Shown here piece after piece: positions 1-40,735 of a DNA stretch of 64,000 nt. A model generated the notes under the pieces. It made no database searches, was not told the origin of the DNA, and saw nothing but the letters and a program-made list of their open reading frames with translations. The DNA is taken from positions 4,832,001 through 4,896,000 of the forward strand of contig OY769902.1 of the NCBI GenBank assembly GCA_963669175.1. Direction: 5' to 3'. Every line of letters begins with the position of its first letter. Within the stretch, counting starts at the first letter, position 1. The position numbers were made by a program, and so were the translations under genes. The DNA comes from a bacterium. GTDB lineage: Bacteria; Electryoneota; Electryoneia; Electryoneales; Electryoneaceae.

Positions 1-2215
1 CTCATCTTCCGGTGTCAGCAGGTCGAAGACCAGCGGTTCATCGTAGATATAGACATCGAAGCTCCAGGTTTCTGTAGACCAGGTGCCGTTCGTATTGCTG
101 TCCTGCGCCCAGACTTTCCAGTAGTATGTACTGTCATCATCCAGCTCATGCAGAACAAGTGTCGTATCCAGTGTGCTTACCGAATCGTAGCTTTCCGCTT
201 CGAAGGACGGGTTCTGGCTCCAGTATACCCAGTAGGTCAGGATCTCATCGGCCGGGTCGGGATCGGTTGTGCCGTTCCAGACCAGTTGGACCGTATCCGC
301 GTGGGTTGAATCCAGATCGGCAGGACTGACAAGGCTGAACTCTTCCGGCGATTCAAGGATGTTGACATGAAGCTGGAAGGTGCTGCTTGACCAGGTGCCC
401 TCGGTGTTCGTATCAAACGCCCAGACCTTCCAGTAATACGTGCTGTCATCCATCAGGTCGGTCAGGGTTGCCGATGTTTCTTCAGTATCGACTGAATCCA
501 CAGTATCCGTGCTGAACAGGGCGTCGTAGCTCCAATAGACACGGTAGATCACCGAGTCGCCCGGATCAGTTTCTACCGCGACTTCCCATTCAGCAGTTGC
601 CGATGTCGAATACGTAGTATCTTCATCTTCCGGTGTCAGCAGGTCGAAGGCCAGCGGTTCATCGTAGATGTATACGTCGAAGTACCAGGTCTCCGTGGAC
701 CAAGTGCCATCGGTATTGGCATCCTGCGCCAGGACTTTCCAGTAGTACCGGGTGTCGTCTACCAGATCACGGATGACACTTGAAGTGTCGTTGCCAACCG
801 AAGCCTCAAACACGCCTTCGTTGAAAGTCGGATCTTCGCTCCAGTAAACTGTGTAGTTCAGTTCAACGTCAACCGGGTCGGGGTCGTAAGTACGTTCCCA
901 GGTTACCAGAACCGTATCCACACGAACCGAATCCGTATCCAACGGACTCAACAGGCTGAACTCTTCCGGGGATTCGAGGATGTTGACATGAAGCTGGAAG
1001 ACGCTGCTTGACCAGGTGCCCTCGGTGTTCGTGTCAAACGCCCAGACCTTCCAGTAATACGTGCTGTCATCCATCAGGTCGGTCAGGGTTGCCGATGTTT
1101 CTTCGGTATCCACAGAATCCACGGTATCCGTGCTGAACAGGGCGTCGTAGCTCCAGTAAACCCGATAGATCACCGAGTCGCCCGGATCAGTTTCTACCGC
1201 GACTTCCCATTCGACATTTGCCGATGTCGAATACGTGGTATCCTCATCTTCAGGTGTCAGCAGATCGAAGGCCAGCGGTTCATCGTAGATGTATACGTCG
1301 AAGTACCAGGTCTCCGTGGACCAGGTGCCATCGGTATTGGCATCCTGCGCCAGGACTTTCCAGTAGTACCGGGTGTCGTCTACCAGATCACGGATGACAC
1401 TTGAAGTGTCGTTGCCAACCGAAGCCTCAAACACGCCTTCGTTGAAAGTCGGATCTTCGCTCCAGTAAACTGTGTAGTTCAGTTCAACGTCAACCGGGTC
1501 GGGGTCGTAAGTACGTTCCCAGGTTACCAGAACCGTATCCACACGAACCGAATCCGTATCCAACGGACTCAACAGGCTGAACTCTTCCGGGGATTCGAGG
1601 ATGTTGACATGAAGCTGGAAGACGCTGCTTGACCAGGTGCCCTCGGTGTTCGTGTCAAACGCCCAGACCTTCCAGTAATACGTGCTGTCATCCATCAGGT
1701 CGGTCAGGGTTGCCGATGTTTCTTCGGTATCCACAGAATCCACGGTATCCGTGCTGAACAGGGCGTCGTAGCTCCAGTAGACTCGATAGATCACCGAATC
1801 GCCCGGATCAGTTTCTACCGCGACTTCCCATTCGACATTTGCCGATGTCGAATACGTGGTATCCTCATCTTCAGGTGTCAGCAGATCGAAGGCCAGCGGT
1901 TCATCGTAGATATAGACATCGAAGCTCCAGGTTTCCGTAGACCAGGTGCCGTTCGTATTGCTGTCCTGCGCCCAGACTTTCCAGTAGTATGTACTGTCAT
2001 CATCCAGCTCATGCAGGACCAGCGTGGTATCCAGTGTGCTTACGGAATCGTAGCTTTCCGCTTCGAAGGACGGGTTCTGGCTCCAGTATACCCAGTAGGT
2101 CAGGATCTCATCGGCCGGGTCGGGATCGGTTGTGCCGTTCCAGACCAGTTGGACCGTATCCGCGTGGGTTGAATCCAGATCGGCAGGACTGACAAGGCTG
2201 AACTCTTCCGGCGCT
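1..2215 (-). repeat. Near-identical 621-bp intragenic tandem repeat (207 aa, two FN3-like domains) with a 1863-bp higher-order period
   Basis: gttgacatgaagctggaag at 361, 982 and 1603. Near-identical shadow ORFs at 126 and 1989 are 1863 bp (3x621) apart. Confidence 0.95.
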
Positions 2216-5200
2216 TCGTAGAACTCTGTATCGAAGTACCAGACTTCTTCGCTCTTCAACGTATCACCGTTCTCGTCATAGGCTACAGCATACCAGTAAT
2301 ACCGGGTATCATCCTGCAGCATACCGGCGGGAATTGTGTAATGCTGCCCGGCCGACATGACATAGTATGGATCGTTTTCGAAGGTGGGATCATCTGACCA
2401 GAAATAACCATAGTACACATAGTCGCCAGGATCGGGATCAGTGACTGATTCAGCGCTAAGCTGCAAGTCCTGATCTGCGAGCATGACGTAGCCGCTTTCC
2501 GGTTGCGCCAGGGTAAACGGCGCGACATTACGATACCACCGTATAGTACCGTTATTCACAGACGGCACCACAAGATCCGGCGCAAAGTCACCGTCAAGGT
2601 CGCCTACCAGTACGGCATGCCCATAACCGAAGTTGGAATCACCGCTCACATGCGGCCAGGGCGCTTCCCACGGGCCTCCCTGGTTCAACCAGCCCCAAAG
2701 CATGTTACCGTCAGCGATATTGGCAACCACATCCATTTCTCTATCAAGGTCAAAGTCACCGGAACCGATACCACGCGCTGGGCCTGTAGCATCATCCAGG
2801 GTATGAGCGGTCCAGACTTGACCGCTATTCTGATACCAGGTCAGATCGTAGTTCGCTGCATCCATGCTTACGACATCAAGAAGGCCATCCCAATTGATAT
2901 CAACAGCATGCGCCGCCTGAACACCGCTAAGACCAGTCACGATATCGGTTACTGCTGCTCCGCCCTGCGCCAAGTTGGCAATGTTGAAGAAGGAGATCGC
3001 ATCATTGAAGGGTACCAGCACATCCAGCGTACCATCGTTGTCAATATCGACAACATGGAAAGCGCCATTGTTCGATACTTCGTTCAACAACGGGTAGGCA
3101 TTAAATACACCACCAGTGTTCTCGAAGAAATAAATAGTACCGCCACTTTCGCCGGTGACGATGTCCAGGTAGCCGTTGTTGTCCAGGTCACCCAGTCCGA
3201 TATAGCCCTGTCCCGAAACATCCAGTACGATAGGATGCTGAGTGAAGTTCTGCGCACCATCGTTCTCCAACCAGACAACGCCATTTCCACCGGGTGTGGC
3301 AACCAGGTCGATATCGCCGTCACCATCCATGTCGCCAGCTTTTACATCATGAGCATTCGGCACCCCTGGCGAGATTGTATGATCGGTAAAGTTGCCGAAC
3401 CCGTCGTTTTCGTACCAGTGCAAATCTGAACCGATGCGCTGGTTGACCACGACATCCAGATCGCCATCCTGATCAAGGTCTACCAGTTGTCCCTGGTCTG
3501 GCTGGGAAAGCCCTGTACCCATATCCTCGACATAAACAAAATCGGTGGTCTCACCTCGTGGCGTGTTCTGGATGTAGGTATCCAACGTCCAGACTTCGTT
3601 GGACCATGTGCCAGTTGTGATGCCATCGTTGGCCTTGACTTTCCAGTACCATGTCCTGTCATCCATCAAGTCGGCTACAGTAACGGAAGTACCCAGCGTC
3701 GAGAACGTCCTGACATTCTGGGTGAAGCCGGTATTGGTTGCCAACCACAGGGTATAGACGATGACATCTTCCGGGTCGGGATCAGTTGTTTCCGCCCAGG
3801 TAAAGGTTGCGCTACCCGTGTGCGATGTGTCTTCATCTGTCGGACTGAGCAGGCTGAAGGCAAGTGGCGCTTCAGGCTGACCGACAAGGAAAGACCAGGT
3901 ATCTGTTGCGAATGTTGAATCCTGCGGGTCTCGCGCAATCACGTACCAGTAGATTGTCGCATCATCCGGCAAGTCACCGGCAAAGGTGTACTGTGTCGCG
4001 GAGATACCTGACGCCATCTGAGGATCGCCGAACCGGTCGTCGTTAATCGACCAGATCACGTCATAGCTGAGTTCTTCACCCGGATCGGGATCGGTTGCTT
4101 CTTCCCAGATCAAGGTCGGACGCAAGGTTACAACCGTATCCTCATCCGCAGGTTCGATCAGTGTAAAGGAATTCGGCGGCTGATAGATGTACACGCTGAA
4201 TTCGAAGGTTTCTGACGACCAGGTACCATCCGTGTTGCTGTCCTGCGCGTGAACCTTCCAATAGTAGGTATTGTCATCTGCCAGTTCCGGTATGGTAAAT
4301 GACGTATCGTTGCCGACATTCGTTTCAAACACACCTTCTATGAAGTTCGGGTCCATCGTCCAGTAGACGGTATACGCGAGTTCCGCGTCAACCGGATCAG
4401 GATCGACTGCACGATACCAGCTCACCACAGTCGTAACATCATGAATCTCTTCACCGTTGGCCGGGCTGTTCAGGCTGAAGGCAGACGGTGGTTCGAGAAT
4501 ACTGACGTGGAACTGGAAGTCTTCTGACGACCAGGTTCCTTCCGTGTTGGTGTCCTGTGCCCAGACCTTCCAGTAGTACGTGCTGTCATCCATCAGCTCA
4601 TGTAGCACCAGGGTGGTGTCTTCAGTGCTGAGTGAATCGTAGGAATCTGCTGCGAACAAGATATCCTGACCATAATAGACCCAGTAGATCACCGAATCGC
4701 CGGGATCGACTTCAAGCGCGGTATTCCATTCAACTGTCGCGCTGTCGGTATAAACCGTAACCTCGTTGTTCGGGGTCAGCAGGCTGAACTCACCCGGTGC
4801 ATCGAAGATATAAACATCGAAGCTCCAGGTCTCAGTTGACCAGACGCCATCCGTGTTGCTGTCCTGCGCATGCACCTTCCAGTAGTAGGTCATGTCATCT
4901 TCAAGACCGCGCAACACCAGCGTAGTATCGTTTCCGACCGTGGAGTCAAACACACCTTCCACAAACGCCGGATCGAATGACCAGTAGACAGTGTAGGCAA
5001 GTGTTGTATCGGCCGGGTCGGGATCAATGGCACGGTTCCAGCTCACGGCCATGGTATCTGCATGAGTTGTGTCGGTATCAACCGGCAGGTTCAAGCTGAA
5101 GGCGGACGGCGGCTCAAGGATATTGATATGGAACTGGAATGTGCTGTCAGACCAGACACCTTCGGTATTGGTGTCCTGTGCCAAGACCTTCCAGTAGTAG

Positions 5201-23200: not shown

Positions 23201-26200
23201 ACCGGATCCAGATCATTTTCATAGCTGTAGATGGTGTACCCCTGCCCCCCACCCATGCTATAATCACCCAGGAACAGATCGAGGTCGATATCATTGTCCA
23301 TGTCACCGGCAGCCATCCAGACCGGCATGCCCATAATGGCGGCTTCGCCTGCCGCATGAGCTACCCATGTAGTATCGCCAAGCCCTTGGAACCACAAGGG
23401 TATGGGCGCGGACGTGGAGGTTCCGTAAAAATCCGGAATCCCGTCCGCATTCAGGTCGGCAATCCGGAAACAGAACATGTTCGGTACAGCCATGATCATA
23501 TGTGGTGTAAAATTCTCTGAACCATCGTTTTCCATCCAGAAGGGGCCGCCTGTTTCGGCCATAAGCACCAGGCTTATGTCCAGGTCGCCGTCCTGATCCA
23601 AGTCCGCCACATCGGGTGATACCAGGTAGGGGATTTCCAGGCCCGCAAGGAGATCATGCTGCGTGAAGACCTGCCCGCCGCTATGGGAATACCAGTACAT
23701 CGTAAGATTGGAAATGTCAGTCACCAGGATATCCTGGTAGCCGTTTTCATCCAGGTCGGCTACGGCCACGCTGTAAGGCATACCGAGACCACTGGCAACC
23801 TCTGTATAAGAGAACGTCTCGCCATCATCATTCAACCAGAGATCCAGTGTTCCCTGATCAGGATTAGCAGCCACGATATCCGGATAGCTGTTCCCGTCAA
23901 AATCGCCAGTGGCAATACTTTCAGAGGCATACTCCGCTGCAATTTCCAATGACGTGAAAGTGGTATCATGGTTGTTGTAATAGGCGTGTAAACCGAAACT
24001 AAACTCTGTTGATGCAACGATATCCGGGTAGCCATCCTGGTTCAAGTCTACGGTATGGATGAACCGTCCGTTCAGTAACGAGTTTGTAACTTCGTTTTCC
24101 GAATAGCTTCCATCACCATTATTTAAATAGAGGTAGATATAGCCGTCGTTGCCTGCAGGATTTGTGGCAACCACGTCCAACCAGCCATCCTGGTTAAAAT
24201 CACCCACGTCAATAAATGCGGTGGAGTCATGCTCCATCTGGACAATACCGCCAGCAAAGGAGATGGGGATATCGGTAATGGAAAATGTACCGCTGTTGGC
24301 TGAAATACGGGAACCATTCTCAACGATAGTAATCACGTAATCCGATGCCGCAATCGTCTCGGTTTCGTTGAGTGCGTCGGGAATTGACCAGTTGTACGGC
24401 GCTGAATTGACCGACACTCCTGACTCGATTACTTCACCACTGAAGTTCCCCCCGCTGACCATGATGGTCAGGGTTTCACCAGGCGTCGCATTGGACCAGG
24501 TTATCGGGATGAGCTGATTAATGACGAAGCTTTCGCCGCCGATGGGATAATTAACGGTGATGTTTTCGTTAAGTTCGCCGCCTGTTGTATTTTCCCACAT
24601 GGCGATGGCGTTGTCCAACCGCGCCGCGCCCAGCACATCATTGTCACCATCGTTATCGATATCGTCAGCAAAAACACAACGTGCTCCGTTGAAAGTATTG
24701 CTCAGTACATGCTCTGTCCAGTTTTCTACATTATTGGTACCGTCATTCTCCCACCAGGCAACAGTGTTATCCGTAATAGCCGCACCTAGAATATCAACAT
24801 CACCGTCACCATCCATATCCTTCGCATGAATGCCACGTGCATCAGTGAAAGTGCTGGTAACCGTATGCTCGGTCCAGTTGGAAACGACATTGGTACCATC
24901 ATTCTCCCACCATGTTATGGAGTTTGCGTATCGTGCCGCTCCCATTACGTCTACATCACTGTCGCCGTCCATATCTGTCGCGTATACGTGGCGGACTCCA
25001 TCAAAGGCGGCATCAACCGAATGGCCGATCCAGGCAGTACCGTTACCGCCATCGTTTTCCCACCATTTGATTTCATCGCCATACCAGGCGCCGCCCAGAA
25101 CATCCACATCGCCATCGCCATCGATGTCCGTTGCATACACGGTACCGGCTTCTCCGAATGAAGTACCGATGGTATGCTCAGTCCAGTTGGCGACAACATT
25201 CGTGCCGTCATTTTCCCACCAGGTAACACTGCCCACGCCGTCCGGACCACCTCCTGCACCCACGATATCCATATAGGTATCGCCATTGACATCAGCGGCA
25301 TAAACAGCACGTGCCTCATCATATGCACCATCTACATTGTGCGTGATCCATGTCGTACCTGCCCCACCATCGTTTTCCCACCAGGTAATCTGGTCGCCAA
25401 GGGTAGCTGCGCCAAGGATATCAATATCTCCGTCGTTGTCCATATCGGCTGCATGGACACTACGGGTTTCATCGAAGACATTATCTACGGTGTGTTTGGT
25501 CCAGTTAGCGACATCCAGTGTGCCATCATTCTCCCACCAGGCAATCTCATCTCCCAGCAACGCAGCGCCGATGACATCTTTGTCGCCGTCACCGTTGACA
25601 TCGGCTGTGTACACACTTACTGGTTCACTAAAGCTGTTGTCAATTACATGTTCCAGGAAATCAGCATCTGATACGATAAATGACCAGGTTTCTGTTGAAT
25701 AGGTAAGTCCGCCATTCTCATCTTCGGCAAGAATGCGCCAGTAGCGAGTGCCATTTTCCCACCCGGGCAGAGTCCAGCTTGTGCCTTCACCGGCATTTGC
25801 GGAATCCCTCGTGGTAAAGCCCGGATCAGTCGCCCAGACTACCCAGTAGGAAACGGTCGTCTGATCGGGATCGGAGGTTGCTTCCCAGGTTAATGTCGCA
25901 TCATCTGCAACAGTTTGCCCATCTGAAGGTGACAGCAGGCTGAATGCAAACGGATCCGCGCCCTGAACTTCGCCGCCGCCAGTCTGGTTCTCATACCAGT
26001 AGATTGTTTCTTCAAATTGGCCACCACCGTAGTCACCAAGGAATAAATCCATGTTGGAATCGCCATCGGCATCGCCGTGCACCATCCAGACTGCAGTACC
26101 ACTTGGACTGTTAATGGCGTGGGGTGCAAAGCTCATTGAGCCAGTATTCTCAATCCAGTACACATCGTTATAGTCTGAAACAGCGTAGAGATCCTTGTCG

Positions 26201-29200
26201 CCATCGCCGTCCAGGTCCGCTGCGTCTACCATATAAATAAAGCCCGGGCCGGGGAGTGTATGATTGGTGAAGTTTTCTGAACCGTCATTTTCCAGCCAAC
26301 TGACTCCGGTTGAACTCGAGACCTGGCTATAGAGGACATCGAGGTCTCCATCTTGGTCCAAGTCTACTGCCCGGACAGAATAAGCGCCTGACACACCGGA
26401 TTGTAGAACGGTTCCTGAATACGTCCATGGGTCGGAGCCCTGGTACCAAATAATAGCGTGGTCGCCAAGCGAGGTGGCCAGTACGTCCATGATGCCGTCT
26501 TCATCCAAGTCGCAATAGTCAACCGAAGACGGAATATTGATGGTATTCGACACTGTAACCTGAATGAAGCTACCTTCACCATCATACGAGTGGATCAAGA
26601 CTTCATTGTTGTCCGGGTCGACGCTGACGATTCGTTGACGACTATAGTGATCTTCCCCACTGTTGTCGATATAGGTCGCATTGTGGGAGCCGGAAATGGT
26701 CTGTAAGGTGAATGTATCGTCACCGTTATTGATATAGGCCCAGATCCCATCCGTTGTCGAGCAGTATACGATGTCCATCCAACCATCGAAGTCCATATCG
26801 ACCGCGAGCACCTGACGTTCATTCCCCGCAGTTGTAGCTATCGGGTGATATGTCCAGCTCCCCTGGCCATCCCCTTCGTACCATGCCAGATATCCCATCC
26901 CTTCACCGGACGGTGACGTTGCTACGATGTCCAGGTCACCATCGTTATTGAAGTCGGCCACATCAATGAAGCCGGTTGAATCGTTAGTTTGGTCTGCAAT
27001 GTGTTGCGTAAAATCCAGGGGAAGGATAATACCAAAAACACCACTGTTGAATGTTCCACCACCACTCGATGTCAAAGTCAGAACATAATCGAAAGCTTCA
27101 GCCAGGCTGGTGCCGTTTAAGGATTCAGCAATCTGCCAGTTATACACTCCACTTTCGGCATCCACACCGGATGCAATCTGCTCATTGGTGTAATTACCGC
27201 CGGTCAGACTGATGTCAACTGTCTCACCATACTCGCCGCCAGTCCATTCGATGGACACAGTTTGGTCCTGGACAAACATGGCTTCTGCAACAGGAGAAGT
27301 AAAAACCAGAGGTTCATCCAGCTCGAAGCCCCAATTCTCAGTTGAATATGTTGCCGCGCCGAAGCTGTCGACTGCTTTCACATACCATGTGTAGTAGGAA
27401 TACAGGAGACCCGTCAACGTATACGTGGTGTCGGTCCCGACGTAAACAGAATCTGCCTCGCCGTAGAAAAACTCATCCAAACCGCCGCCACCGCCTGCAT
27501 TTTCCTCGTATATGACCCAATACTCCACATTGTCGCCTTCAGGGTCAGTGGAGGAGTACCAAGCCAGATCGGCGCTGTAAACGGTGGATCCATCACTTGG
27601 CGATGCCAGGCTGAACGCGCCGGGGGACAGGTTTGAATCAATCTCCCAGAAATCGACACTGCCACCAAATGTACAGGTTAACAGATCCTGGGTACCATTC
27701 CCATCCACGTCGCAGATTGTCAATCCAGTTGGACCGGAATAAGCATTGTCCAGGGTATGTTCCACGAATGACGCATAACCATCATTTTCCCACCAGGATA
27801 GCGATGCGCCTGTACGTGCAATCGCCGCGATATCAACATCACCGTCATTATCAAAGTCAGCCGGCAGCGCAATTTCAGCCCAGGAGAAGCTGGATGTCAG
27901 AGTGTATTCATTGAATACGTAATCGCCCTGGTTCAGCCAGTAGAAGACCGAATTCAGTGAACGGGAAGTTGCAATAATATCCAGGTTGCCATCTGAATCG
28001 AGATGAGCAGCAGAAACACTATTCAGGCCGGAAAGAACTGAACTGACTACAGTTTCTGTGAAGTCCTGGGCTCCGCCATTGACCCACAAACTGACCTTGC
28101 TACCGGTCATGGACGCGGCAAGCACATCCATATCGTCGTCATCATCAATGTCAACGATATAAACATAATTATACGGTACTGAGCCATCGTCGAATTCATG
28201 CTCAGTGAAAACCTGGTCCCCATCATTTTCCCACCATGACAGCCCACTGGTTGTAGCTTTCGCGCTGACAATGTCCATGTCTCCATCATTGTCCATATCC
28301 GCGGCAACTGCGTGGTACGCGCTGGCATAGGAGTTGGAAATGGTATTCTCTGTGAATTGTCCGGCGCCGTCATTCGCCCACCAGGCAAGCTCACCGCCCA
28401 GGTAGGCTGCGCTGATAATGTCCAGGTCACCATCAAGGTCCACATCAGCCAATGACGTGGAGATAACACCGCTGAAAGTGGAGGTCACAATATTCGCTGT
28501 GAACCCCTGTCCGTTTCCGGGATTCTCCCACCATTGGATCGTATTGCCGGAGTAGCCGGCGGTGACAAAATCGAGATCTCCATCCCCATCAATATCGCCA
28601 GCCACTACATCTTCAGCACCGTCAACACCGAATGCAATTTGTGAAGAGGTCCAGTTGGATGCATCTACCGTTTCGGCCGTAGTAAAGGACCAGATTGGTC
28701 CTTCAACTGTCATGCCGTCAAAGGATGAGACGATCTGCCAGTAATAGGTCGTGTTGGCATCCAACGCTGCATAGGTAATTCCGAATACGTCCTGACTGTT
28801 GGAGGTTCTTTCCCAAATCTGGGTAGAGGGTGGGTAAGAGGTTCCAAAGCAGATATTATAATAGACAGTTGAACCTTCCAGGCGTCCGCCCAGCCAGCTT
28901 AGATCGAAGAATCGGGGTACACCGGTCGCGCCATCTGCCGGGTACGGAGTATTCGGAATATTGATGTCGGTAATAAAGAAGGAACCACTTTCAGCATAAC
29001 CTCCATAATAATCAGAGATCCACAGGGCATAAGAACCGTATTCAGTTAAATCTTCAACACTTATGGTCCATGTAAAAGAAGTTTCCGTTAATCCTGTTGC
29101 AATCATCGTTTCGTTGCTGAGCATAATATCGTAGGGACTTGATCCTCCCGTCCATTCAATTGTTACTTCATCACCGACAGCGTAGGTTTCTTCACCTACT

Positions 29201-29589
29201 GGCGAGATGATATTGATATCACCTCCAGTAATGGAAAACCAGAAAGTGGACATGGACTGCGTTTCATTCCATTCCTCATCACGTGCCCGGACATACCAGC
29301 TATGCTCACCGGCTGAGACGGTCAATTCGGCATATGGATCCGAGAGACCACTTTCCCAAAGTGCGTCGTCAATGTACAGGTCGTAAACGATTGATCCTTC
29401 TTCAGGGTCAGTCGAAATACCCCATTCAAAATAGACAGCGTTGCTCTCCAGGTTCGCACCATTGGCAGGCGACAGCAAATCAAATTCTGTCGGGAACTGG
29501 GCAAATGCACCTCCGGCCCACCCCAACACCATCGCCATCACCGTGAACCCGGTGACCAACATTCTCTTTTGCGTGCTGTACTTCTTCAT
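1..29589 (-). CDS. Giant secreted surface protein/adhesin (at least 9,863 aa, 3' end outside window): FG-GAP/VCBS beta-propellers, FN3/Ig-like domains, one LamG-like domain
   Basis: ATG at 29589 gives MKKYSTQKRMLVTGFTVMAMVLGVAGGAFA|QFPTEFDLLSPANG (signal peptide). The same frame reads FDVYIYDEPLVFDLLTPEDE at bases 60..1 and gave sensible protein wherever I spot-translated it. The minus-strand ORF-track entries I checked in 1-29589 are all in another frame, as expected if this frame has no stop. DxDxDGxxD FG-GAP motifs and F-x-L-L-S-P...W...YYW-x-V-x-A-x-D domains recur throughout. Confidence 0.93.
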   Translation of the reverse strand, partial: MKKYSTQKRMLVTGFTVMAMVLGWAGGAFAQFPTEFDLLSPANGANLESNAVYFEWGISTDPEEGSIVYDLYIDDALWESGLSDPYAELTVSAGEHSWYVRARDEEWNETQSMSTFWFSITGGDINIISPVGEETYAVGDEVTIEWTGGSSPYDIMLSNETMIATGLTETSFTWTISVEDLTEYGSYALWISDYYGGYAESGSFFITDINIPNTPYPADGATGVPRFFDLSWLGGRLEGSTVYYNICFGTSYPPSTQIWERTSNSQDVFGITYAALDANTTYYWQIVSSFDGMTVEGPIWSFTTAETVDASNWTSSQIAFGVDGAEDVVAGDIDGDGDLDFVTAGYSGNTIQWWENPGNGQGFTANIVTSTFSGVISTSLADVDLDGDLDIISAAYLGGELAWWANDGAGQFTENTISNSYASAYHAVAADMDNDGDMDIVSAKATTSGLSWWENDGDQVFTEHEFDDGSVPYNYVYIVDIDDDDDMDVLAASMTGSKVSLWVNGGAQDFTETVVSSVLSGLNSVSAAHLDSDGNLDIIATSRSLNSVFYWLNQGDYVFNEYTLTSSFSWAEIALPADFDNDGDVDIAAIARTGASLSWWENDGYASFVEHTLDNAYSGPTGLTICDVDGNGTQDLLTCTFGGSVDFWEIDSNLSPGAFSLASPSDGSTVYSADLAWYSSTDPEGDNVEYWVIYEENAGGGGGLDEFFYGEADSVYVGTDTTYTLTGLLYSYYTWYVKAVDSFGAATYSTENWGFELDEPLVFTSPVAEAMFVQDQTVSIEWTGGEYGETVDISLTGGNYTNEQIASGVDAESGVYNWQIAESLNGTSLAEAFDYVLTLTSSGGGTFNSGVFGIILPLDFTQHIADQTNDSTGFIDVADFNNDGDLDIVATSPSGEGMGYLAWYEGDGQGSWTYHPIATTAGNERQVLAVDMDFDGWMDIVYCSTTDGIWAYINNGDDTFTLQTISGSHNATYIDNSGEDHYSRQRIVSVDPDNNEVLIHSYDGEGSFIQVTVSNTINIPSSVDYCDLDEDGIMDVLATSLGDHAIIWYQGSDPWTYSGTVLQSGVSGAYSVRAVDLDQDGDLDVLYSQVSSSTGVSWLENDGSENFTNHTLPGPGFIYMVDAADLDGDGDKDLYAVSDYNDVYWIENTGSMSFAPHAINSPSGTAVWMVHGDADGDSNMDLFLGDYGGGQFEETIYWYENQTGGGEVQGADPFAFSLLSPSDGQTVADDATLTWEATSDPDQTTVSYWVVWATDPGFTTRDSANAGEGTSWTLPGWENGTRYWRILAEDENGGLTYSTETWSFIVSDADFLEHVIDNSFSEPVSVYTADVNGDGDKDVIGAALLGDEIAWWENDGTLDVANWTKHTVDNVFDETRSVHAADMDNDGDIDILGAATLGDQITWWENDGGAGTTWITHNVDGAYDEARAVYAADVNGDTYMDIVGAGGGPDGVGSVTWWENDGTNVVANWTEHTIGTSFGEAGTVYATDIDGDGDVDVLGGAWYGDEIKWWENDGGNGTAWIGHSVDAAFDGVRHVYATDMDGDSDVDVMGAARYANSITWWENDGTNVVSNWTEHTVTSTFTDARGIHAKDMDGDGDVDILGAAITDNTVAWWENDGTNNVENWTEHVLSNTFNGARCVFADDIDNDGDNDVLGAARLDNAIAMWENTTGGELNENITVNYPIGGESFVINQLIPITWSNATPGETLTIMVSGGNFSGEVIESGVSVNSAPYNWSIPDALNETETIAASDYVITIVENGSRISANSGTFSITDIPISFAGGIVQMEHDSTAFIDVGDFNQDGWLDVVATNPAGNDGYIYLYLNNGDGSYSENEVTNSLLNGRFIHTVDLNQDGYPDIVASTEFSFGLHAYYNNHDTTFTSLEIAAEYASESIATGDFDGNSYPDIVAANPDQGTLDLWLNDDGETFSYTEVASGLGMPYSVAVADLDENGYQDILVTDISNLTMYWYSHSGGQVFTQHDLLAGLEIPYLVSPDVADLDQDGDLDISLVLMAETGGPFWMENDGSENFTPHMIMAVPNMFCFRIADLNADGIPDFYGTSTSAPIPLWFQGLGDTTWVAHAAGEAAIMGMPVWMAAGDMDNDIDLDLFLGDYSMGGGQGYTIYSYENDLDPVNNAPTAFSMISPADGATISDSPHSFTWEDNSDPDGHALTWWVYFSTTSDLLTDRDSISTDVEYISIAIDTMILDQTYYWTVLASDGYIGGDTWASDTLSFTIEDNPYINLVAFYPYSGDADDASGHERHATEYGGPVLVEDRFGNTDAAYYFDGTDDQIRTSYDAAFYPTSLSASAWVKVESLPDASFNYIMSTCGSGTNPPYDPFRLCIDGEGFPSVHIESQNNAASGTVGGSNPVSFDRWHLVTATVDGSTGAVLLYVDGVLDASDTFGFAPGTGSSDFVVGATSDDGNGAMQFFNGAIDGVRFYNDVLTAAEVEAIYTEGGWNGDYDPLTLTYPTGGETFVFDQTVPITWTGGATGDLLTFTLSGGEVSDAPMVSDIAVEDGVYPWNVSELMNDYTIVAASDYVITVTASPSGDFVSSDPFTIEDPSISFAQSIVQAEQDSTAFIDVADFNQDGWLDVVATNPAGLVGYVLVYVNDGQGGYADVQVTPSLPSGRFVKAVDVNQDGYPDIVATSDDASGMFLYTNDQDMTFTPSQIEGEYTVRSIDTGDLDNDGYPDLVTTAMGGSFTRWMNDGSGNFSGTSLDYNISIPNTVVIEDLDGDGWNDIVLTDYGYETVAWLQNSNGSSFSYYQVLPSSSLSMPQGLAVGDMDDDGDMDIVVAEYDSEGYMYWLENDGNESFTQNFFAEMPYMNSIGVADLDGDGYLDAYSASPAAPFVVWYQSLSGSAWVPHMAGMVMGGTAQMAVHGDADSDGDIDLFFGDYAGGYGDIYTIYVLENDLDPPNNAPRNFALISPFDEAVVTDDPVTFNWENLGDPDGDPLSWWLYLSTSPDMTADRDSIHVYSYSYPIDLSEFANGQTYHWTVLATDGLSTGMTWASDTLSFTTWTGLFAMQTMFTATAPGYLTAGDIDLDGDRDLLVTSQDEGYLHAYTNDNMAMTLDAISGSMAMPWDPAIIDLDFNNQPDIVIADELGGEVGLVHQFISSGQMSFYDFDVAFAFAPTFVAVADLDLDGDWDIIHNSSMEITDVYWQENIGSIDGVPQYIEHYLVEDYRCQYGAAGDIDNDGDEDILLGGNDYPAVAWIENYGDGTFSELQSTNGLQSSVTWCDLVDMNQDGFLDALLINPEEGKMTIQYYESGNADFGVDQILCYDITTGISRAAAYDVDEDGDVDIVALWPSQNSVYWYENLGSPDYQYTAHNIGGIASPMDIVIDDFDSDGDADIAASSFGDNAVYWWENLTDEVNGAPPSIPELATPYPDQTITTSEVTLTWDRSSDPDGETASYTVFYSPLATFAQAVGWTGVGSDTSATLTGLANGTYYWTVVAEDPSGDVQQSSQIYFFNMDVSHFTQQDLVDDGGDIINLVGYDEDSDGDLDVLTADYTGNSVQWYINNEGLLTFQSVGNLSHATSVDAADFDGDGDTDIIAGKTQAVGFYTYYSNNGDGSYQSTSISSSRTFECQFVDIDADNTMDIVATLEGALTQLSPDGEGGLTQTDIGESDAYGMDIGDWNLSGLLEVVTSGYDESNVLKYYEQYEPGGFTVETICDTFVNGYDIAGGDFDQDGVTDAAAISTTPGTGLVVYMHRNESWIPVLVDTGMRGKRVRTGLINDDAYLDIVATGYDIDEVAVYLNDGTGLSWTRESLGSIGSPVALDLVDWDDDGSLDILVGTETDSIRLYLNDFPEPPEQAPGVPALVYPTNGETFGYDVVTLQWGESIDPQGQAVDYTVIWALDAGFTTGVGYADQLDQLQYPLYALEDFTTYYWKVRAVDEQGYWTESEARSFTTEFGQGVLLDEYLVMETPGTHSGASPFDMDGDGDMDAVVISESSHSLSWYENDGAFNFTEHTIDAYFGENVWVDDIDGDGDGDVAVISFSAENVGWYEQTAPGTFTFHELGAHASGQWVEVRDVDEDSDLDIIAAFETASGVYWYENDGSTPPNFTEYMVGNAGDVSGPWDCEAIDFDGAGGVDIIVPDYVGNTLGWFQNDDAETFGYTDIATLIAPHSVAVADFNLDTYKDIVVACEGSFPDYNGSQVIWFENDGGLSFYNSHQLSSGSYSCVNVGDFDGDGDTDIAAGSWNEAVAGWYENIDGSVMTWHPLLSGENCTEIQIIDADADGDDDMLVTTTAGVYWFLQGGISNTAPATFALISPADEYLTDMTSIACSWDASIDPDGDDVTYTLIWSTSPTFSSNVDSTEGLTNTSSVLIDLADRNFWYWKVRAYDPSGLGIESETSHSLYLNLNGVVNDPLTVVDADLHYGTAVSTGDVDHDGDIDIVATGASNGVVWYENDGGYFGSQELLYNLTSSENDVCVSDLNGDTYDDILFVGRAPNAAGSVAWLENQGGTFSFHSINSTLNSPTDARGADFDGDGDIDVAATINGSPNQATDGELIWFRNDGNGSSWTTLTIDAGLEGATSLEPVDMDDDGDVDILATGETNNDLNWYENDGSGSFTTHAITHSLNRPSRIWPGDMDGDGDVDFAVVAFVSDVLAWFENDGSESFTYHLVEDQLNGASVVYGGDTDLDGDIDLFAGANLDNLVMEFRNNGNMEFTRIVYTAFDSGPEDVLLADIDNDLDLDFLAVAKSENKLSMWENDASDFLPTGFDLTYPLAGSVIQESSTWLRWQSSMDPQGFGGITYKVQWTTGDEYDPWQVAYTPADSFYLAGLEDDSLYYWNVTAIAESGLEMEANSEESFSINMPNDPRGRTTEFASSIMGAFNAASDLLPEDVDFDGDVDMIAVSYTNSTIGWYEYDSDSETWTYHLIDDTEASATVVKLGDISGDGIDDILIGRDTFPYLIAYVNDGAGSFTGVPVGEVPGPITDFEVGYFLGNSSIQLVLGCTDDSLFFIGDNVQFIHADWPVDNIEVLDFDQDGYLDIVCNGTADAGEPSVWWMEGTGDEMIEHGIEYSQTSIPDISMLKLDGSDNWHIAGVNPATSGSVWWENDGSMNFTYHHLFGGGTGYTDIETADIDRDGHEDLLFNRSDVLYCLYNLDGMLTGFQVYGISVTQTNGVFATADLFDTGYKDVITFNAGLNELVVNSNTSTFKLTSPPVGSWSDGESVTLEWEEVTDPDPLDNIGYWLKWATNAAFDLNVDSMLVYDTTATLENLSNMNTWFWSVTAVDQNGGRLEPASLRYVFVRDLEYSGRPTFPNGETTVDNSLVMASDGVKGDFNRDGYLDFAVAWNGSNTIRVYFNDGTGSFTTQDVTTSLDLVQTLSVVDVDQDGRPDLVAGCSNSTLGQDHLVWFRNGSGAPIVWTEYFIDDGFPNVFSVRAVDMNGDSYPDIVAASYTTGQVGWYEHSQASPPSWTFHLVASQANAFSLAIDDIDGDGDKDILAGAQSEGGNVAWYENDGSGNFSAHSVTTSNNYTQHVFIADVDGDGYNDLLTTSDGDGNIKWWASDGATPPNFSNGVTITNGFLEATDVKAFDFDADGDVDILGAAQGSGEIRWWENDGNPAPSFTMRTIGSLTGAADIISGDFDLDMDADIVGLGFAGNVVKLWENFPTTEFDPPNAFSLVSPANEATVTTHTPELSWNETEDPDSPTFLYALFWSFSASFDADVDSVILAGTSFTLPWQQDDQTLYWKVLAFDDEGNETWSDQTWSFDISVPDAPRGPEMVWSRSTLNDELISLRDALPVDVDGDGDIDIATTHDTDEANRFHLLRQNASGVFNEYDVPNGTALSTTYGAVPVYLDPDDYIDFVVVDKSNNRLYIYWGDASGYFSTSQPLLAGLSQPNSAIAGDFDLDGDMDLAVTNEGTNDAVLLINDGTDPPSFSSQLILDGEDNYYFNKVVAGDMDRDGDLDLVIQKTSSGGSGYVIIAENNLYDGFGFTEHTALSVNSPSGLNLADVNDDGKLDILVANNGNSTVFWAQNNDNFAFTAYALPGTVDTPSMIDAADYDADDDLDLLTGSYIDNTYYLYTNDGTNTFTQSEIDVQSGHQSMSNRWSDLDGDGDIDIVVSEIAFGAYWYEQSYPFALLGPEDGSIINSTELTWQTVTDPDPGQTIEYVLQYTTDPTWQANVWTTVISDTFYTYNSWEEGETTYWSVIARDNTYQHQLWAQDTLSFIYENVDSPNPFSLAAPANQSEFASRSVVVSWDLTTDPDVGDSVEVYIVQWSSDPTFNTDLHWATTDNDSLRITGLMDELTYSWRVRAMDTQGNITPSGETWTFDIELDEPPVGSEMFWTKSVIDNDNNEYNDMLPMDFDEDSDIDIIGAAGLDDFNKALRFTNNNGFWDDGGIPGNTDLSSPPEFAIGDFNNDLVEDIVIISRNDHTVKLYLGDGTGNHTPLTVTEEIVGATGIATGDFNLDGALDIAVGSNTGDSLVICLGDGQYPPSFTFVIIPTYSNPLSLDAGDIDDDGDLDIAVGAHGAVGWMENTGFDAGDIWTQHDLQNPFNFAQDIVVEDMDADGDLDVLTANNDATGFITWYENAGGGTFSSQSTLPGNYNGIPQVWVADYDEDGDKDVFVPGYNDGIICVYQNDGYQNFTADTLDTYAEGNGRAVISGDFNGDGWIDIVAADQYNGLYQYNRSSRFATTYPGWADSVQTLQPTITWEEVLETDPDDSVFYSLVYAYSDPNLEEATTVSPIWDTEYTFPYGDLANGDEVYWAVYATDTQDNEIASDTSMFVVNLDAAFTSHQIFFAEGPVNAIGRGDVDQNGTEDLIYIDPDADQLLIQYNDGMGNFTQDVAFPNYYADPKKYIVVDFDGDEDMDILNLNTNFVDIFENEGDGNFGAPIALLTVSGVTDFEVFDYQGDGDLDFVAVGPSTVRLGVSDGEGVVTGTIISDVIGGSEVEVTDLNNDGYDDIVMVVNANDNVIGWTYVEGSGYTSNTVLGSMNNPTSLEIVDFDDDGNEDIVVGSDDGLAWLDYTGVFSYTLYLIDESYTGVTDIVAVDIDWDGDVDLLTSSDYNADEEVTLWMQNVPLTLDRQPIAEFYSFPASLDWADFNGDHMPDVLVMEQSGGLARWYDNLIETPVNPHYPAAPLLTYPEADATVEEMAVVLTWDVPEDQDVTDRLYYVVRSAEDPYLTVNVDSFLTYSPFHKLADLTNSQNYYWAVMAHDVNSGGVWSDTLHFLVNYNSAPGAFALLSPENGITLDTPDTTFSWEEAVDDMPPGDHVVYTLWLATDASFTDNLFTYATDNTSFSVSGLLDNTTWYWKVRAVDEWGAETWSTETWSIDVNIPDLPQGPEIELLPEGVILSGLTNARDVKVVDLDQDGDSDLVVCGDGASELTWLDNDGSNNFTETVIASEYGGVNDVSIADLDDDGDLDVAAVTNANEVSWFENDGSQTFTRHDLSTDFTAPSHIEVGDLDNDGDIDIVAGAYTSWGKVFENNGDGTFTEYDQGPGLVGAIELVDVNNDGIRDIVYQHGGNPGSVTWYEVPDGDFSALTSNTVTTAVVGAADVMVGDINGDGWRDFVVPIDDPQNKIVWYENQNAESYVEHEVALNTGLAWDGELADLDVDGDLDIIVSGAQDGDMVWYSNDDGTGTSWTAHEFVTGLDLASAIRAVDLTGDHAPDLVGMDYYGDEVMWWSNTSPFSPISPDTATVMLVDEERVFTWQSVTDPDPGDEVTYSLIYSTDPTFETADTLDSIADTSFSFVTGSFADDQTYYWYVQALDTNTDGLTSENVFWFETDYSEPPAAFSLNLPVDEDTVRADTVAVSWNRAIDPDPADTTLSYTVFWSQDPTFSEVVFDSTVGDDTTLVIRELSDDSIYYWKVLAQDSNTEGTESTETWSFAVYIYDVPGEFSLLTPTDTDTVYADSATVEWNTALEIDPGDSVIYWVYYGLDAAFTAETYDSVSTEDTTLVLHELMDDSTYYWKVWAQDTNTEGTWSTETFQFFINILEPPAAFSLNLPVDEDTVRADTVAVSWNRAVDPDPADTTLSYTVYWSEDPAFGIGVQDSTVGNDTTLVLRNYKDDTTIYWKVHAQDSNTDGTWSSETRSFDVYIYDEPFAFNLLTPTDEDTVYADSATVVWNTAFEADPGDSVIYWVYYGLDALFTAETYDSLSTEDTTMALYELMDDSTYYWKVLAQDTNTEGVWSDSTFQFHINILEPPSAFSLNLPVDTDTTHADTMAVSWNRAIDPDPADTTLAYTVYWSFDPAFVEGVFDSTVGNDTTLVLRGLEDDMTYYWKVHAQDSNTDGVWSTETWSFDVYIFDAPGEFSLLTPNNEVTVYTDSATVEWNTALEVDPGDSVIYWVYYGQDILFAADSYDSLSTEDTTLVLHELMDDSTYYWKVWAQDTNTEGTWSSEDFQFHVSILEPPSAFSLNSPANGEEIHDVTTVVSWYRAVDPDPVDAELAYTVYWTMDPNFIEGVFETNVGNDTSFTIPELADDNTYYWKVHAQDSNTDGTWSSETFEFSVYIYQPPNSFTLIEPADEDTVVTLRPTLIWEEATDPDPGEELSYDVIWSINDDRFGDPQMASGISATQYTFAGDLPDDATIYWYVIARDPQDSTFATDTWSFLVGQPEAPLAFSLLSPTDEDTSHTGSATFTWAETTDPDPEDVIVYTLWLATNTGFTQNVRTFSTLGTSVTVADLMDDRTWYWKVKANDGITTGTWSNEVWTLDTYIQNTPRGETTDFVYVEDMGTGLSQPDQGQLVDLDQDGDLDVVVNQRIGSDLHWYENDGFGNFTDHTISPGVPNAHDVKAGDMDGDGDIDLVATPGGNGVVWLENDGAQNFTQHPIVLDVSGQGYIGLGDLDNNGYLDIVTGESGGTIYFFENTGGVFNAYPLLNEVSNNGAFHVVDIDNDGTLDVLVPFNDAISFFNIANLAQGGAAVTDIVTGLSGVQAAHAVDINWDGLLDVVSMDAANYDLTWYQNSGQVWTAHTLDDATGPARGIGSGDFDLDREMDVVANIADGNMLWGWLNQGGPWEAPWPHVSGDSNFGYGHAVLVGDLDGDFAPDLVVPSVNNGTIRWYRNVAPFTLAQPESGYVMLADQDLQLSAESVTDPDPGDYVYYGYFWSDDPTFENDPYYVMSAGQHYTIPAGMLQDDTRYYWYAVAYDENGDTLKSEEVWYFDTEFYEAPEEFSLVSPADLDSTHADTVQLVWNGTTDPDPADEILTYWVYWSQNPSFEAESYDSVSTLDTTLVLHELDDDSTYYWKVWAQDSNTNGTWSTETWSFDVYIYDEPLAFDLLTPEDEDTTYSTSANVEWEVAVETDPGDSVIYRVYWSYDALFSTDTVDSVDTEETSATLTDLMDDSTYYWKVWAFDTNTEGTWSSSVFQLHVNILESPEEFSLLSPLDTDSVRVDTVLVTWERTYDPDPVDVELNYTVYWSEDPTFNEGVFEASVGNDTSSVIRDLVDDTRYYWKVLAQDANTDGTWSTETWYFDVYIYDEPLAFDLLTPEDEDTTYSTSANVEWEVAVETDPGDSVIYRVYWSYDALFSTDTVDSVDTEETSATLTDLMDDSTYYWKVWAFDTNTEGTWSSSVFQLHVNILESPEEFSLLSPLDTDSVRVDTVLVTWERTYDPDPVDVELNYTVYWSEDPTFNEGVFEASVGNDTSSVIRDLVDDTRYYWKVLAQDANTDGTWSTETWYFDVYIYDEPLAFDLLTPEDEDTTYSTSATAEWEVAVETDPGDSVIYRVYWSYDALFSTDTVDSVDTEETSATLTDLMDDSTYYWKVWAFDTNTEGTWSSSTFQLHVNILESPEEFSLVSPADLDSTHADTVQLVWNGTTDPDPADEILTYWVYWSQNPSFEAESYDSVSTLDTTLVLHELDDDSTYYWKVWAQDSNTNGTWSTETWSFDVYIYDEPLVFDLLTPEDE
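3580..6665 (-). repeat. Second, more diverged array of about 10 FN3-like domains with 621-bp periodicity in its core
   Basis: aaccggcaggttca at 5080, 5701 and 6322. The same YYWKV-x-AQD-x-NT-x-GTWS motif recurs about every 310 bp. Confidence 0.85.
22240..22890 (-). other. LamG-like/concanavalin-A-type jellyroll domain within the giant protein
   Basis: Translation LVAFYPYSGDADDASGHERH...DRFGNTDAAYYFDGTDD...SASAWVK...WHLVTATVDGSTGAVLLYVDG...FFNGAIDGVRFYNDVLTAAEVEAIY matches the Laminin_G_3 pattern. Confidence 0.85.
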
Positions 29590-29627
29590 AAGTCGACTCA
29601 CTGTTTAGGGCCGTCCGGGGTCACTCT

Positions 29628-29652
29628 TCCCGGCCAGGCATGGCCGGTCTAC
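29628..29652 (-). repeat. GTAG-type REP-like palindrome, copy 1
   Basis: Minus strand GTAGACCGGCCATGCCTGGCCGGGA: a GTAG tetramer followed by a CCGGCCA/TGGCCGG stem. Confidence 0.75.
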
Positions 29653-29831
29653 CCGGGAACGCTCCAACAACGTTGCGGTCCAACCTTCGCCGCCCGGCTG
29701 GTTTCGCTTCAAAACGAAACCTGACGTGCGGCGCCACGATATCGTGGACTATATCAAGCGGCGAACTTCTCACCGAACACTTTTTCAACTTCTTCCCGGG
29801 TGCAAGCGCCCGGGCCACACGGTTTTCCTCA

Positions 29832-29856
29832 TCCCGGCCAAGCATGGCCGGGCTAC
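29832..29856 (-). repeat. GTAG-type REP-like palindrome, copy 2
   Basis: Minus strand GTAGCCCGGCCATGCTTGGCCGGGA, 18 bp after the stop of the barrel gene. Confidence 0.75.
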
Positions 29857-29874
29857 GAAGAACCGAGCGACTAC

Positions 29875-32754: not shown

Positions 32755-32869
32755 GATACGCTCCCCATTGGTTTTACCCCTCCCCAACAAGCCGGTCCCT
32801 CAACCAGCCTGGAACAACAAAGTTCCTATACAACTCGTGCTGCGTTTTTTAATCGGATAGCGTCATCCA

Positions 32870-33574: not shown

Positions 33575-33654
33575 GACTCTACCTCTTCCGTGAACCGATT
33601 CTACGGTTCATCTCCCGTGGACAAGCCCCCTCAATACCTTGCCCCGACATCCTT

Positions 33655-37829: not shown

Positions 37830-37834
37830 TACTC

Positions 37835-39255: not shown

Positions 39256-39274
39256 TCAGGTAGTGAGAATTTCC

Positions 39275-40716: not shown

Positions 40717-40735
40717 CTACTTCAAAGAGGCAACG

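Follow-up and report, generated by a model that had tools for sequence, protein, structure and literature searches.

The window analyzed here, a stretch of 64,000 nt of bacterial DNA, raises the question of whether its first 29.6 kb are occupied by a single giant gene and, if so, what kind of protein this gene encodes and how the protein leaves the cell. A reading based on the sequence alone had proposed a hidden minus-strand gene of at least 29.6 kb, encoding at least 9,863 aa, that the ORF track had missed. Listing of ORFs with open ends revealed a single minus-strand frame of 9,867 codons at 1..29601 with an open 3' end. The frame starts with GTG at 29601, right after the in-frame TAA at 29607-29605. 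From the ATG at 29589 to base 1, 9,863 codons were read without a stop, and the 5' part of the giant CDS was placed at 1..29589 (minus strand; alternative start GTG 29601). No in-frame stop was found on translation of all 9,867 codons, whereas the remaining five frames across this 29.6-kb region contained 158, 416, 437, 323 and 720 stops. At the lowest observed stop rate (about 1.6% per codon), the chance of 9,867 stop-free codons is about e^-159. Thus, the existence of the hidden gene was confirmed, as was its omission from the ORF track. The omission is explained by the default listing, which skips frames running off the window: without open ends, eight ORFs of at least 150 aa were listed in 1..29600, none of them in the giant frame. 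Since the window edge severs the frame 19 residues into a new fibronectin type III (FN3)-like unit of about 97 aa, the gene must continue past base 1.

The visible protein has a mass of 1.08 MDa and a pI of 4.05 (D 12.5%, D+E 17.8%, K+R 2.1%), and the description of the product as very acidic and modular held up, with FG-GAP and FN3 modules along its whole length. Its first 31 residues (MKKYSTQKRM...GGAFA↓Q; 29497..29589, minus strand) form a signal peptide that was classified by manual criteria as the Sec/signal peptidase I type, in agreement with the sequence-only reading. The n-region carries a net charge of +4, no other 19-mer among all 9,863 residues is as hydrophobic as the h-region (residues 11-29), the cleavage motif AFA↓Q is of the AxA type, and a lipobox Cys is absent. 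No second TM-like segment was found in the visible protein. A Sec leader on a giant adhesin had been presented as a puzzle. This was overstated, because a Sec signal peptide plus a C-terminal sorting domain (CTD) defines type IX secretion system (T9SS) cargo, as described in PMC7463736, and the T9SS-secreted motility adhesin SprB of Flavobacterium johnsoniae, with 669 kDa, is a precedent (PMC9127263, PMC7463736).

Custom profiles assigned almost every residue of the visible protein to a domain. Besides the signal peptide, 35 FN3-like domains, four Kre9/KNH Ig-like domains, one Laminin_G_3 domain and 16 FG-GAP propellers were counted. The N-terminal head (28678..29493, minus strand) consists of an FN3-like domain (aa 33-118), a Kre9/KNH Ig-like domain (aa 128-205) and a second FN3-like domain (aa 212-304). 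It is followed by a propeller-rich body (aa 305-7642; 6664..28677, minus strand) with 15 FG-GAP propellers, each trailed by one or two FN3-like domains. Three further Kre9/KNH Ig-like domains (aa 764-853, 1680-1770 and 2465-2554) lie within the body, as does the Laminin_G_3 domain of the concanavalin-A-like lectin/glucanase fold (aa 2283-2446; 22252..22743, minus strand; 85 bits, cut-off 27.6). A first tandem array of ten FN3-like units (aa 7643-8669; 3583..6663, minus strand), arranged as A/B pairs of 207 aa (621 nt), leads to the 16th propeller (custom profile; seven blades, aa 8670-9022; 2524..3582, minus strand). The visible part closes with a second tandem FN3-like array (aa 9023-9863; 1..2523, minus strand) of eight full units and 19 residues of a ninth. 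In total, 109 FG-GAP blades were detected in the 16 arrays: 14 arrays of seven, one of six and one of five. Pfam profiles gave the same picture, and the FG-GAP, FN3 and Laminin_G_3 domains anticipated by the sequence-only reading were all present. FG-GAP_3 (PF13517) scored 515.1, 547.7 and 342.5 bits in the three pieces of the protein (cut-off 26.9; 29+28+20 = 77 stretches), and FG-GAP (PF01839), fn3, Laminin_G_3 and Kre9_KNH all exceeded their cut-offs. Neither a SprB repeat nor a T9SS CTD was found by Pfam in the visible 9,863 aa; the true C-terminus lies beyond base 1. The CTDs of T9SS cargo are of type A (TIGR04183/PF18962) or type B (TIGR04131/PF13585).

The module spanning aa 3014-3469 was modelled with AF2 (pLDDT 84.7, pTM 0.73) as a seven-bladed integrin/CRTAC1-type propeller with a β-sandwich. 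The best solved structural matches to the model were CRTAC1, the aldos-2-ulose dehydratase propeller, integrin alpha headpieces and the PVL lectin (E 3e-13 to 1e-8). The visible protein contains 87 D-x-[DN]-x-[DN]-G motifs, and the Asp columns are invariant across an alignment of 15 modules; by these sequence features, the FG-GAP blades are predicted to bind Ca2+. The giant protein is therefore unusual in size and ordinary in kind, being made of familiar calcium-binding propeller and fibronectin-like modules.

An assembly artefact (a chimera, or repeats that were wrongly collapsed) could in principle mimic a gene of this length, as could a dead relic that is not translated. The end of the visible gene gives some reason for caution, as the last 2.2 kb (nt 1-2217) consist of near-identical 621-nt tandem units with a longest exact repeat of 455 nt; between nt 1-354 and nt 1864-2217, the identity is 97%. 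These units were mapped by self-BLAST and an offset scan, their period exceeding the Tandem Repeats Finder limit of 500, and their copy number could have been mis-assembled from short reads. Moreover, a frameshift in the neighbouring TetR gene indicates that indels exist in the assembly or the genome, and the giant protein is missing from both protein collections searched. However, outside the last 2.2 kb, the modules are too diverged to be mis-assembled: their pairwise identity in the propeller-rich body is 22-29%, so that the duplications must be old. The stop-free frame speaks against an artefact or relic, as does the pattern of substitutions: dN/dS was 0.06-0.36 in all 21 pairs of FN3 double units, and the most similar pair differs mainly by synonymous changes (dS 0.133, dN 0.008). 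In addition, the protein neighbouring the giant gene is recorded on a single contig of 5,447,365 bp, and the 29.6 kb contain only three homopolymer runs of at least six. An artefact or relic is thus very improbable. Purifying selection was shown to act on the gene, which is genuine, intact and coding along its whole visible length.

In a search of protein representatives with the N-terminal 1,200 aa, 60,053 relatives were obtained at E <= 0.001, the best with 40% identity, and the giant protein itself was absent. The protein is an exceptionally long representative of a very common kind, built wholly from common modules. Residues 1-2600 matched 18 proteins in the length band of 5,426-17,268 aa, with 23-41% identity, and 29 proteins of 4,551-5,000 aa; the giant protein itself was absent from both bands. 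As the collection lacking it in the longer band does contain the neighbouring protein of the window, the giant protein could be longer than 17,268 aa or could simply not have been deposited there. T9SS CTDs were present in the precomputed Pfam lists of 5 of the 18 and 8 of the 29 matches. Among the best 14 relatives, seven ended in a CTD above the cut-off (six Por_Secre_tail, one CHU_C) and one more carried a CTD below it. All seven have a signal-peptide-like N-terminus, as does P0002. The remaining six are without a CTD; at least one of them is visibly truncated, while the others may genuinely differ.

A search of genomic contigs returned a single relative, L001, which shares the array of A/B FN3 pairs and is 56% identical to the terminal FN3 array of the giant protein over 282 aa. 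In its C-terminal part, the FN3 units are followed by a CarboxypepD_reg domain, about 300 aa of unassigned sequence and a Por_Secre_tail. The latter is a type A CTD (PF18962, 36.1 bits, cut-off 27; TIGR04183, 42.2 bits, cut-off 23). Orthology between L001 and the giant gene is not established because the 5' end of L001 is cut by the contig edge. The genes downstream of L001 encode a beta-propeller/FN3 protein, ZnuA, a two-component pair and MotA/ExbB, with no T9SS component among them.

Since L001 and half of the 14 best relatives end in a CTD, the giant protein may by analogy carry a T9SS sorting domain at its C-terminus beyond base 1. The host is probably an FCB-group bacterium, as the window encodes a CarboxypepD_reg-TonB receptor and HmuY, and atlas look-alikes of two family-less genes upstream of the giant gene are commonest in Fidelibacterota, Cloacimonadota and Bacteroidota. 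That the locus encodes a real giant Sec-exported FG-GAP/FN3 surface protein is highly likely, leaving the T9SS route aside. The full reading is favoured as reasonably probable; in it, an FCB-group bacterium exports a giant adhesin or surface fibre by Sec, and T9SS delivers it. The product would start out with a cleavable Sec signal peptide and be threaded over the inner membrane. Outside the cytoplasm, it would fold into a string of beads of at least 16 seven-bladed, Ca2+-binding FG-GAP propellers (integrin/CRTAC1 type), spaced by at least 35 FN3-like and four Ig-like beta-sandwiches and one ConA-like lectin domain. The type IX secretion system would then pass it through the outer membrane, with the C-terminal sorting domain as the signal, and the protein would remain attached to the surface of the cell, where it would serve as a very long, multivalent adhesin or fibre stiffened by cations. 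Surface retention and an adhesive role are suggested, the latter by the motifs and the fold.

Export by Sec without T9SS, by another outer-membrane route or tether, is a less likely alternative. A dedicated system formed by the three genes upstream, another type of C-terminal sorting signal or vesicle release would be the options. The upstream genes encode an exported, very acidic 517-aa protein (33655..35208), a 234-aa exported protein with a FecR domain (32870..33574) and a protein of 971 aa as ORF (959 aa in the protein collection; 29875..32790). All are on the minus strand, and together with the giant gene they form four head-to-tail genes from 35208 to 1, with a spacer of 285 nt separating the giant gene from the 971-aa gene. 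The 971-aa protein combines a lipoprotein-type leader (..LVAC) with an outer-membrane-barrel-like C-terminus (...RYTYKF), and clusters of look-alikes at 0.98 occur in FCB phyla; the 517-aa protein weakly matches the FN3 profile of the giant protein itself (E 5e-4). This arrangement, the six best relatives without a CTD and the lack of T9SS genes in the window would fit such a route: no T9SS component, the core proteins SprA/Sov, PorK-N/GldK-N, PorU and PorV included, was found in the 34 kb flank (24 neighbouring ORFs scanned with Pfam, 12 with NCBIfam), and no CTD on the neighbouring ORFs scanned. However, T9SS genes are normally scattered in genomes, so that their absence from 34 kb says little. 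Nothing ties the upstream genes to export. The 971-aa protein matched no Pfam/NCBIfam family even at E 0.05 and no sequence relative in the PDB, its two partial homologues each span just 9% of the query, and its single-sequence AF2 model was unusable as a fold (pLDDT 34.1). With a T9SS CTD on the sole close relative of the terminal array, in addition to half of the best relatives, the T9SS route is preferred.

Two further readings rank low. In one, a polymorphic toxin or Rhs-type protein would have its delivery stalk in the visible part and its RHS repeats and toxin tip beyond base 1. RHS repeats (PF05593) do occur in the distant FG-GAP giants P0010, P0044 and P0045, but these are just one of the 18 and two of the 29 matches and have 22-32% identity. 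As the 9,863 visible residues contain no RHS or toxin domain and L001, to which the terminal array is most closely related, has a T9SS CTD at its end, this reading is improbable. In the other, the protein is an RTX-type giant adhesin exported by a type I system (T1SS) in the manner of LapA, SiiE or the ice-binding adhesin. The size and the repetitive Ig-like architecture resemble those of T1SS adhesins, and an ABC transporter cluster is located 8 kb from the giant gene. This cluster is, however, of the MacB/FtsX and LolA-like type on the opposite strand and not a HlyB/HlyD/TolC set. In the 9,863 visible aa, only one RTX-like nonapeptide was found; a weak retention_LapA match (24 bits, cut-off 50) belongs to the FecR protein and not to the giant protein. 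Since T1SS adhesins of this kind lack a Sec leader and a Sec-type signal peptide is present here, T1SS export is extremely improbable.

The giant protein comes closest to multi-kilo-residue FG-GAP/VCBS and FN3 proteins with a T9SS CTD from uncultured FCB-group bacteria. P0022 (4,818 aa), P0053 (4,504 aa), P0002 (7,015 aa; named 'FG-GAP-like repeat-containing protein' by NCBI) and the L001 protein are of this type. They share with it the FN3/Ig_Rha78A_N-like sandwich combined with a seven-bladed FG-GAP_3 propeller, the signal-peptide-like N-terminus and the acidic composition, and some also carry Laminin_G_3. With at least 9,863 aa, the giant protein exceeds the longest FG-GAP relative returned by the searches (7,967 aa). 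It is 26-41% identical to its best relatives, and their CTD is seen, whereas its own C-terminus lies beyond the window. SprB resembles it in being very large, repetitive and located at the cell surface. SprB takes the route proposed here, with a Sec signal peptide followed by T9SS, and shows that this route copes with cargo of several hundred kDa. It differs in consisting of SprB repeats instead of FG-GAP propellers and in having a CTD of type B and a PorP/SprF-like partner whose gene is close by; none of the 24 scanned ORFs of the window matched the PorP/SprF family, and the visible giant protein already has a mass 1.6 times that of SprB. Chouhan et al. (2011; PMC3192720) described bacterial integrin-type seven-bladed propellers as single or 'sometimes two tandem' per protein. 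These propellers and CRTAC1 (PDB 9etn) have, as here, seven FG-GAP blades and in every blade a D-x-D-x-D-G-type Ca2+ loop; the giant chain contains 16 propellers compared to the one or two given in that paper.

Surveys of giant bacterial genes offer a second frame of comparison. West-Roberts et al. (bioRxiv 10.1101/2023.11.21.568195) classified genes for proteins of more than 10,000 aa as large and of at least 30,000 aa as giant, and the Chlorochromatium giants Cag_663 and Cag_665 have 36,806 and 20,647 aa (bioRxiv 10.64898/2026.03.19.712371). As in these cases, an uninterrupted ORF of tens of kb encodes an extracellular repetitive protein that is easily hidden by fragmentation or window edges. 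The emphasis of the survey is on phyla of the PVC group, above all Omnitrophota, with neighbours for type II secretion or pili, and that paper contains no occurrence of 'FG-GAP', 'VCBS', 'T9SS' or 'type IX'; the giants of the green sulfur epibiont are assigned to T1SS in the report on them. The visible 9,863 aa are just under the 10,000-aa line of the survey, and the tail beyond base 1 would, judged by L001, add well over 137 aa.

Should the T9SS reading be correct, the protein would lend itself naturally to testing how large a cargo Sec and T9SS can export (more than 1.08 MDa versus 669 kDa for SprB). As an FCB-group surface fibre built from strung integrin-type propellers, it would be extreme as well, with 16 instead of one or two. 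A bolder version is rather unlikely: the gene would be far longer than the window shows (more than 17,268 aa) and encode a protein of at least 2 MDa with a T9SS sorting domain. Dozens of integrin-like propellers loaded with Ca2+ would make up a coat, or a fibre measuring a few hundred nm or more, by which particles or other cells are captured. Among all cargo proposed for any type IX system, such a protein would be the largest by far, several times the size of SprB. It would raise the question of how the SprA translocon, which has 36 strands, and the periplasm cope with so large a string of folded beads.

As a practical lesson, frames that leave a window or contig edge escape ordinary ORF lists, and near-identical 621-nt units at such edges call for long-read confirmation. 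A promoter/terminator scan of 29400-36400 showed no excess over shuffled sequences (7 versus 7.3 and 4 versus 7.0), and the window gave no Rfam match at gathering thresholds and no tRNA match. Two copies of a GC-rich palindrome of 19-20 nt (29629..29852) lie in the 285-nt spacer that separates the giant gene from the 971-aa gene.

An ORF listing with open ends revealed a minus-strand frame, 1..29601, of 9,867 codons without a single stop up to the window end. It opens with GTG 29601, directly preceded by an in-frame TAA (29607-29605); with ATG 29589 as start, 9,863 residues are encoded (MKKYSTQKRM...), i.e., the 5' part of a giant gene cut by the window edge. The remaining five frames contained 158-720 stops over the same stretch, which excludes chance as the origin of the frame (about e^-159 by our own arithmetic at the lowest stop rate observed). 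Thus, the giant frame proposed by the sequence-only reading was real, and full translation, which that reading had asked for, showed no in-frame stop. It was also confirmed to be missing from the ORF track: none of the eight ORFs of at least 150 aa listed in 1..29600 without open ends belonged to its frame, since the default listing omits frames running off the source. The visible chain amounts to 1.08 MDa with a pI of 4.05, 12.5% Asp, 0.69% Lys and 27 Cys, and domains were assigned over nearly every residue, as anticipated for a very acidic modular product. On the opposite (+) strand, where frame 0 had only 158 stops, ORFs of up to 308 aa were present (e.g., 2503-3429, others inside 1-29600); they look like by-products of Asp/Thr/Gly-rich codon usage rather than genes.

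The three domain types listed earlier for checking, FG-GAP, FN3 and Laminin_G_3, were each found by Pfam above the curated cut-offs, as were Kre9_KNH Ig-like domains. Scanned in three pieces, the protein scored 515, 548 and 343 bits for FG-GAP_3 (77 stretches in total), and one Laminin_G_3 was located at aa 2283-2446; NCBIfam named no family in the first 2,996 aa. Profiles built on the giant protein itself assigned nearly every residue. Following the signal peptide (aa 1-31, own profiles and manual criteria), they placed a small FN3-Ig-FN3 head and then, as far as aa 7642, fifteen propeller-plus-FN3 modules. An array of 10 FN3 units comes next, then propeller sixteen, and finally another FN3 array, of which 8 units and 19 residues of a ninth lie before the window end. 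These profiles counted 35 FN3-like units, four Kre9/KNH Ig-like units and 109 FG-GAP blades; the blades form 16 arrays, of which 14 have seven blades, one has six and one five. When the fifteen propeller-FN3 modules were aligned, identity to the first was only 22-29%, and the Asp columns were invariant or nearly so; 87 D-x-[DN]-x-[DN]-G motifs occur in the visible protein. The module at aa 3014-3469 was modelled as seven four-stranded blades and a β-sandwich (pLDDT 84.7, pTM 0.73). Its best solved match was CRTAC1 (E 2.8e-13), and other leading matches were the propeller of aldos-2-ulose dehydratase, headpieces of integrin α and PVL, a lectin from Psathyrella.

With regard to assembly, nt 1-2217 consist of tandem 621-nt units with exact repeats of up to 455 nt. 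Identity between nt 1-354 and nt 1864-2217 is 97%; the number of units in this stretch is uncertain without long reads. The remaining 27 kb of the giant gene are too diverged to be mis-assembled. A neighbouring protein of the window, P0196 (100% identity), is recorded on one contig of 5,447,365 bp, which points to a chromosome-scale assembly. Indels do occur in this sequence. In a TetR-family gene at 36344-37032 (+), the TetR_N part (ORF 36344-36712) and the TetR_C part (ORF 36718-37032) stand in different frames; as the TetR_C frame is open already from about 36640, the split is a frameshift, due either to a pseudogene or to an indel error. The broken TetR gene makes the intact frame of 29.6 kb more telling. 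In addition, dN/dS was 0.06-0.36 in all 21 pairs of 207-aa FN3 double units (differences in the most similar pair being mainly synonymous; dS 0.133, dN 0.008), which shows purifying selection on this reading frame. The giant gene encodes a chain that is under selection, bears a secretion signal and consists of Ca2+-loop propellers spaced by β-sandwiches.

The Sec leader noted earlier displayed every manual hallmark of the Sec/signal peptidase I type: a net charge of +4 over residues 1-12, an h-region (11-29) ranking as the most hydrophobic 19-mer among the 9,863 residues, the cleavage motif AFA|Q and no lipobox cysteine. No further TM-like segment and one RTX-like nonapeptide were detected in the 9,863 residues. 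Gln after the cleavage site would agree with the 'Q-rule' described for Bacteroidetes (available text of PMC5837995); it was given little weight because the rule is said not to hold across the whole FCB group. A Sec leader on a giant adhesin, which the sequence-only reading had set against the Sec-independent T1SS export of many such adhesins, is no paradox, as a Sec signal peptide combined with a C-terminal sorting domain (CTD) is the layout by which type IX secretion system (T9SS) cargo is defined in the accessible part of PMC7463736.

That such a CTD lies beyond the window, as the sequence-only reading had suggested, is plausible but unproven, and relatives were inspected for their C-termini. 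The genome-contig search yielded one related locus, L001, whose gene lacks its 5' end at a contig edge and reaches its stop codon. It shares the array of A/B FN3 pairs with the giant protein (56% identity over 282 aa), followed by further FN3 units (some with inserts), CarboxypepD_reg, about 300 residues without assignment and, last, a type A sorting domain for the T9SS (PF18962, 36.1 bits, cut-off 27; TIGR04183, 42.2 bits, cut-off 23). The gene directly downstream, L001 5598-6881 (+), encodes 427 aa, FN3-like at the N-terminus and with a beta-propeller of the YNCE/lactonase type. Beyond it lie ZnuA, a histidine kinase/response regulator pair and MotA/ExbB; no T9SS gene was among these downstream genes. 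The best 14 representatives scanned ended in Por_Secre_tail (six) or CHU_C (one), or had a match below cut-off (one) or no CTD (six, at least one of them visibly truncated), and those with a CTD had signal-peptide-like leaders. Precomputed domain lists gave a T9SS CTD for 5 of 18 matches in the 5,426-17,268-aa band of a large protein collection and for 8 of 29 in a longer-protein search with a 2,600-aa query covering up to 5,000 aa (RHS repeats: 1 of 18 and 2 of 29). The giant protein itself was not found in the former band, and nothing in the representative library exceeded 40% identity to its N-terminal query.

The giant protein belongs to a well-known kind, since its N-terminal 1,200 aa matched 60,053 library proteins (E <= 0.001), there are relatives of 4,500-8,000 aa that combine these modules with a T9SS CTD, and genes for more than 10,000 aa have been recorded from many phyla (bioRxiv 10.1101/2023.11.21.568195, available portion). 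Its scale stands out: the longest FG-GAP relative among the matches returned has 7,967 aa, bacterial integrin-type propellers had been noted once, sometimes twice, per protein (PMC3192720, in the excerpt available) as compared to 16 here, and the visible mass is 1.6-fold that of SprB (669 kDa; PMC9127263, accessible text). No T9SS cargo above 1 MDa was found in the literature searched, mainly titles and abstracts, which is no proof of absence. The giant protein is an exceptionally long new protein of a known kind. The chain would cross the inner membrane by Sec, may fold with divalent cations, would pass through the T9SS by means of a C-terminal CTD and might be retained at the surface, where it would be a multivalent adhesin or fibre. 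Strung out, 35 FN3 units, 4 Ig units and 16 propellers would span in the order of 0.2 µm, as estimated from typical domain sizes.

Upstream on the same strand, three genes for exported proteins lie head to tail (29875-35208 (-)), encoding a very acidic 517-aa protein with weak FN3-like matches (profile and composition), a 234-aa FecR-domain protein (domain scan) and a 971-aa protein that starts with a lipoprotein-type leader and ends in ...YTYKF, on sequence features a lipoprotein or putative outer-membrane barrel. For the latter, no Pfam or NCBIfam family and no solved relative was found, and a word search of 5.8 billion proteins returned two homologues only, both partial. It had look-alike clusters at 0.98 in Fidelibacterota and Cloacimonadota; atlas look-alikes of the 517-aa and 971-aa proteins were commonest in these phyla and Bacteroidota. 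A GC-rich palindrome, CCGGCCATGC-N-TGGCCGGG, is intergenic at 29629-29648, 29833-29852 and 41979-41998, two of the three copies lying within the spacer that immediately precedes the giant gene. No copy was expected (100 shuffles); the palindrome may represent a REP-like element, or else a hairpin for transcript stabilisation or termination.

Pfam scans of 24 neighbouring ORFs and NCBIfam scans of 12 revealed no T9SS component in the window. The cluster at 37071-44176 (+) probably specifies an exporter of the MacB type that has no relation to the giant gene; it comprises a LolA_like protein, three MacB_PCD/FtsX permeases, an ABC ATPase and an exported protein of 395 aa without a family, whose ...RLKWNW end resembles an outer-membrane barrel. 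For a 538-aa protein (59895-61511 (-); Asp+Glu 29%, pI 4.06), inspection by eye showed no signal peptide, and neither Pfam nor NCBIfam gave a family. The pI of the window's exported proteins was 4.05-4.6 as compared to 5.2-5.9 for most cytoplasmic ones, which hints at a saline habitat. At 46203-49591 (-), an HmuY-like lipoprotein (two HmuY stretches, pI 4.05) adjoins a CarboxypepD_reg-Plug-TonB receptor, by its domains a pair for the uptake of haem or nutrients, as is typical in Bacteroidota-like bacteria; together with the look-alike taxa, this pair fits an FCB-group host.
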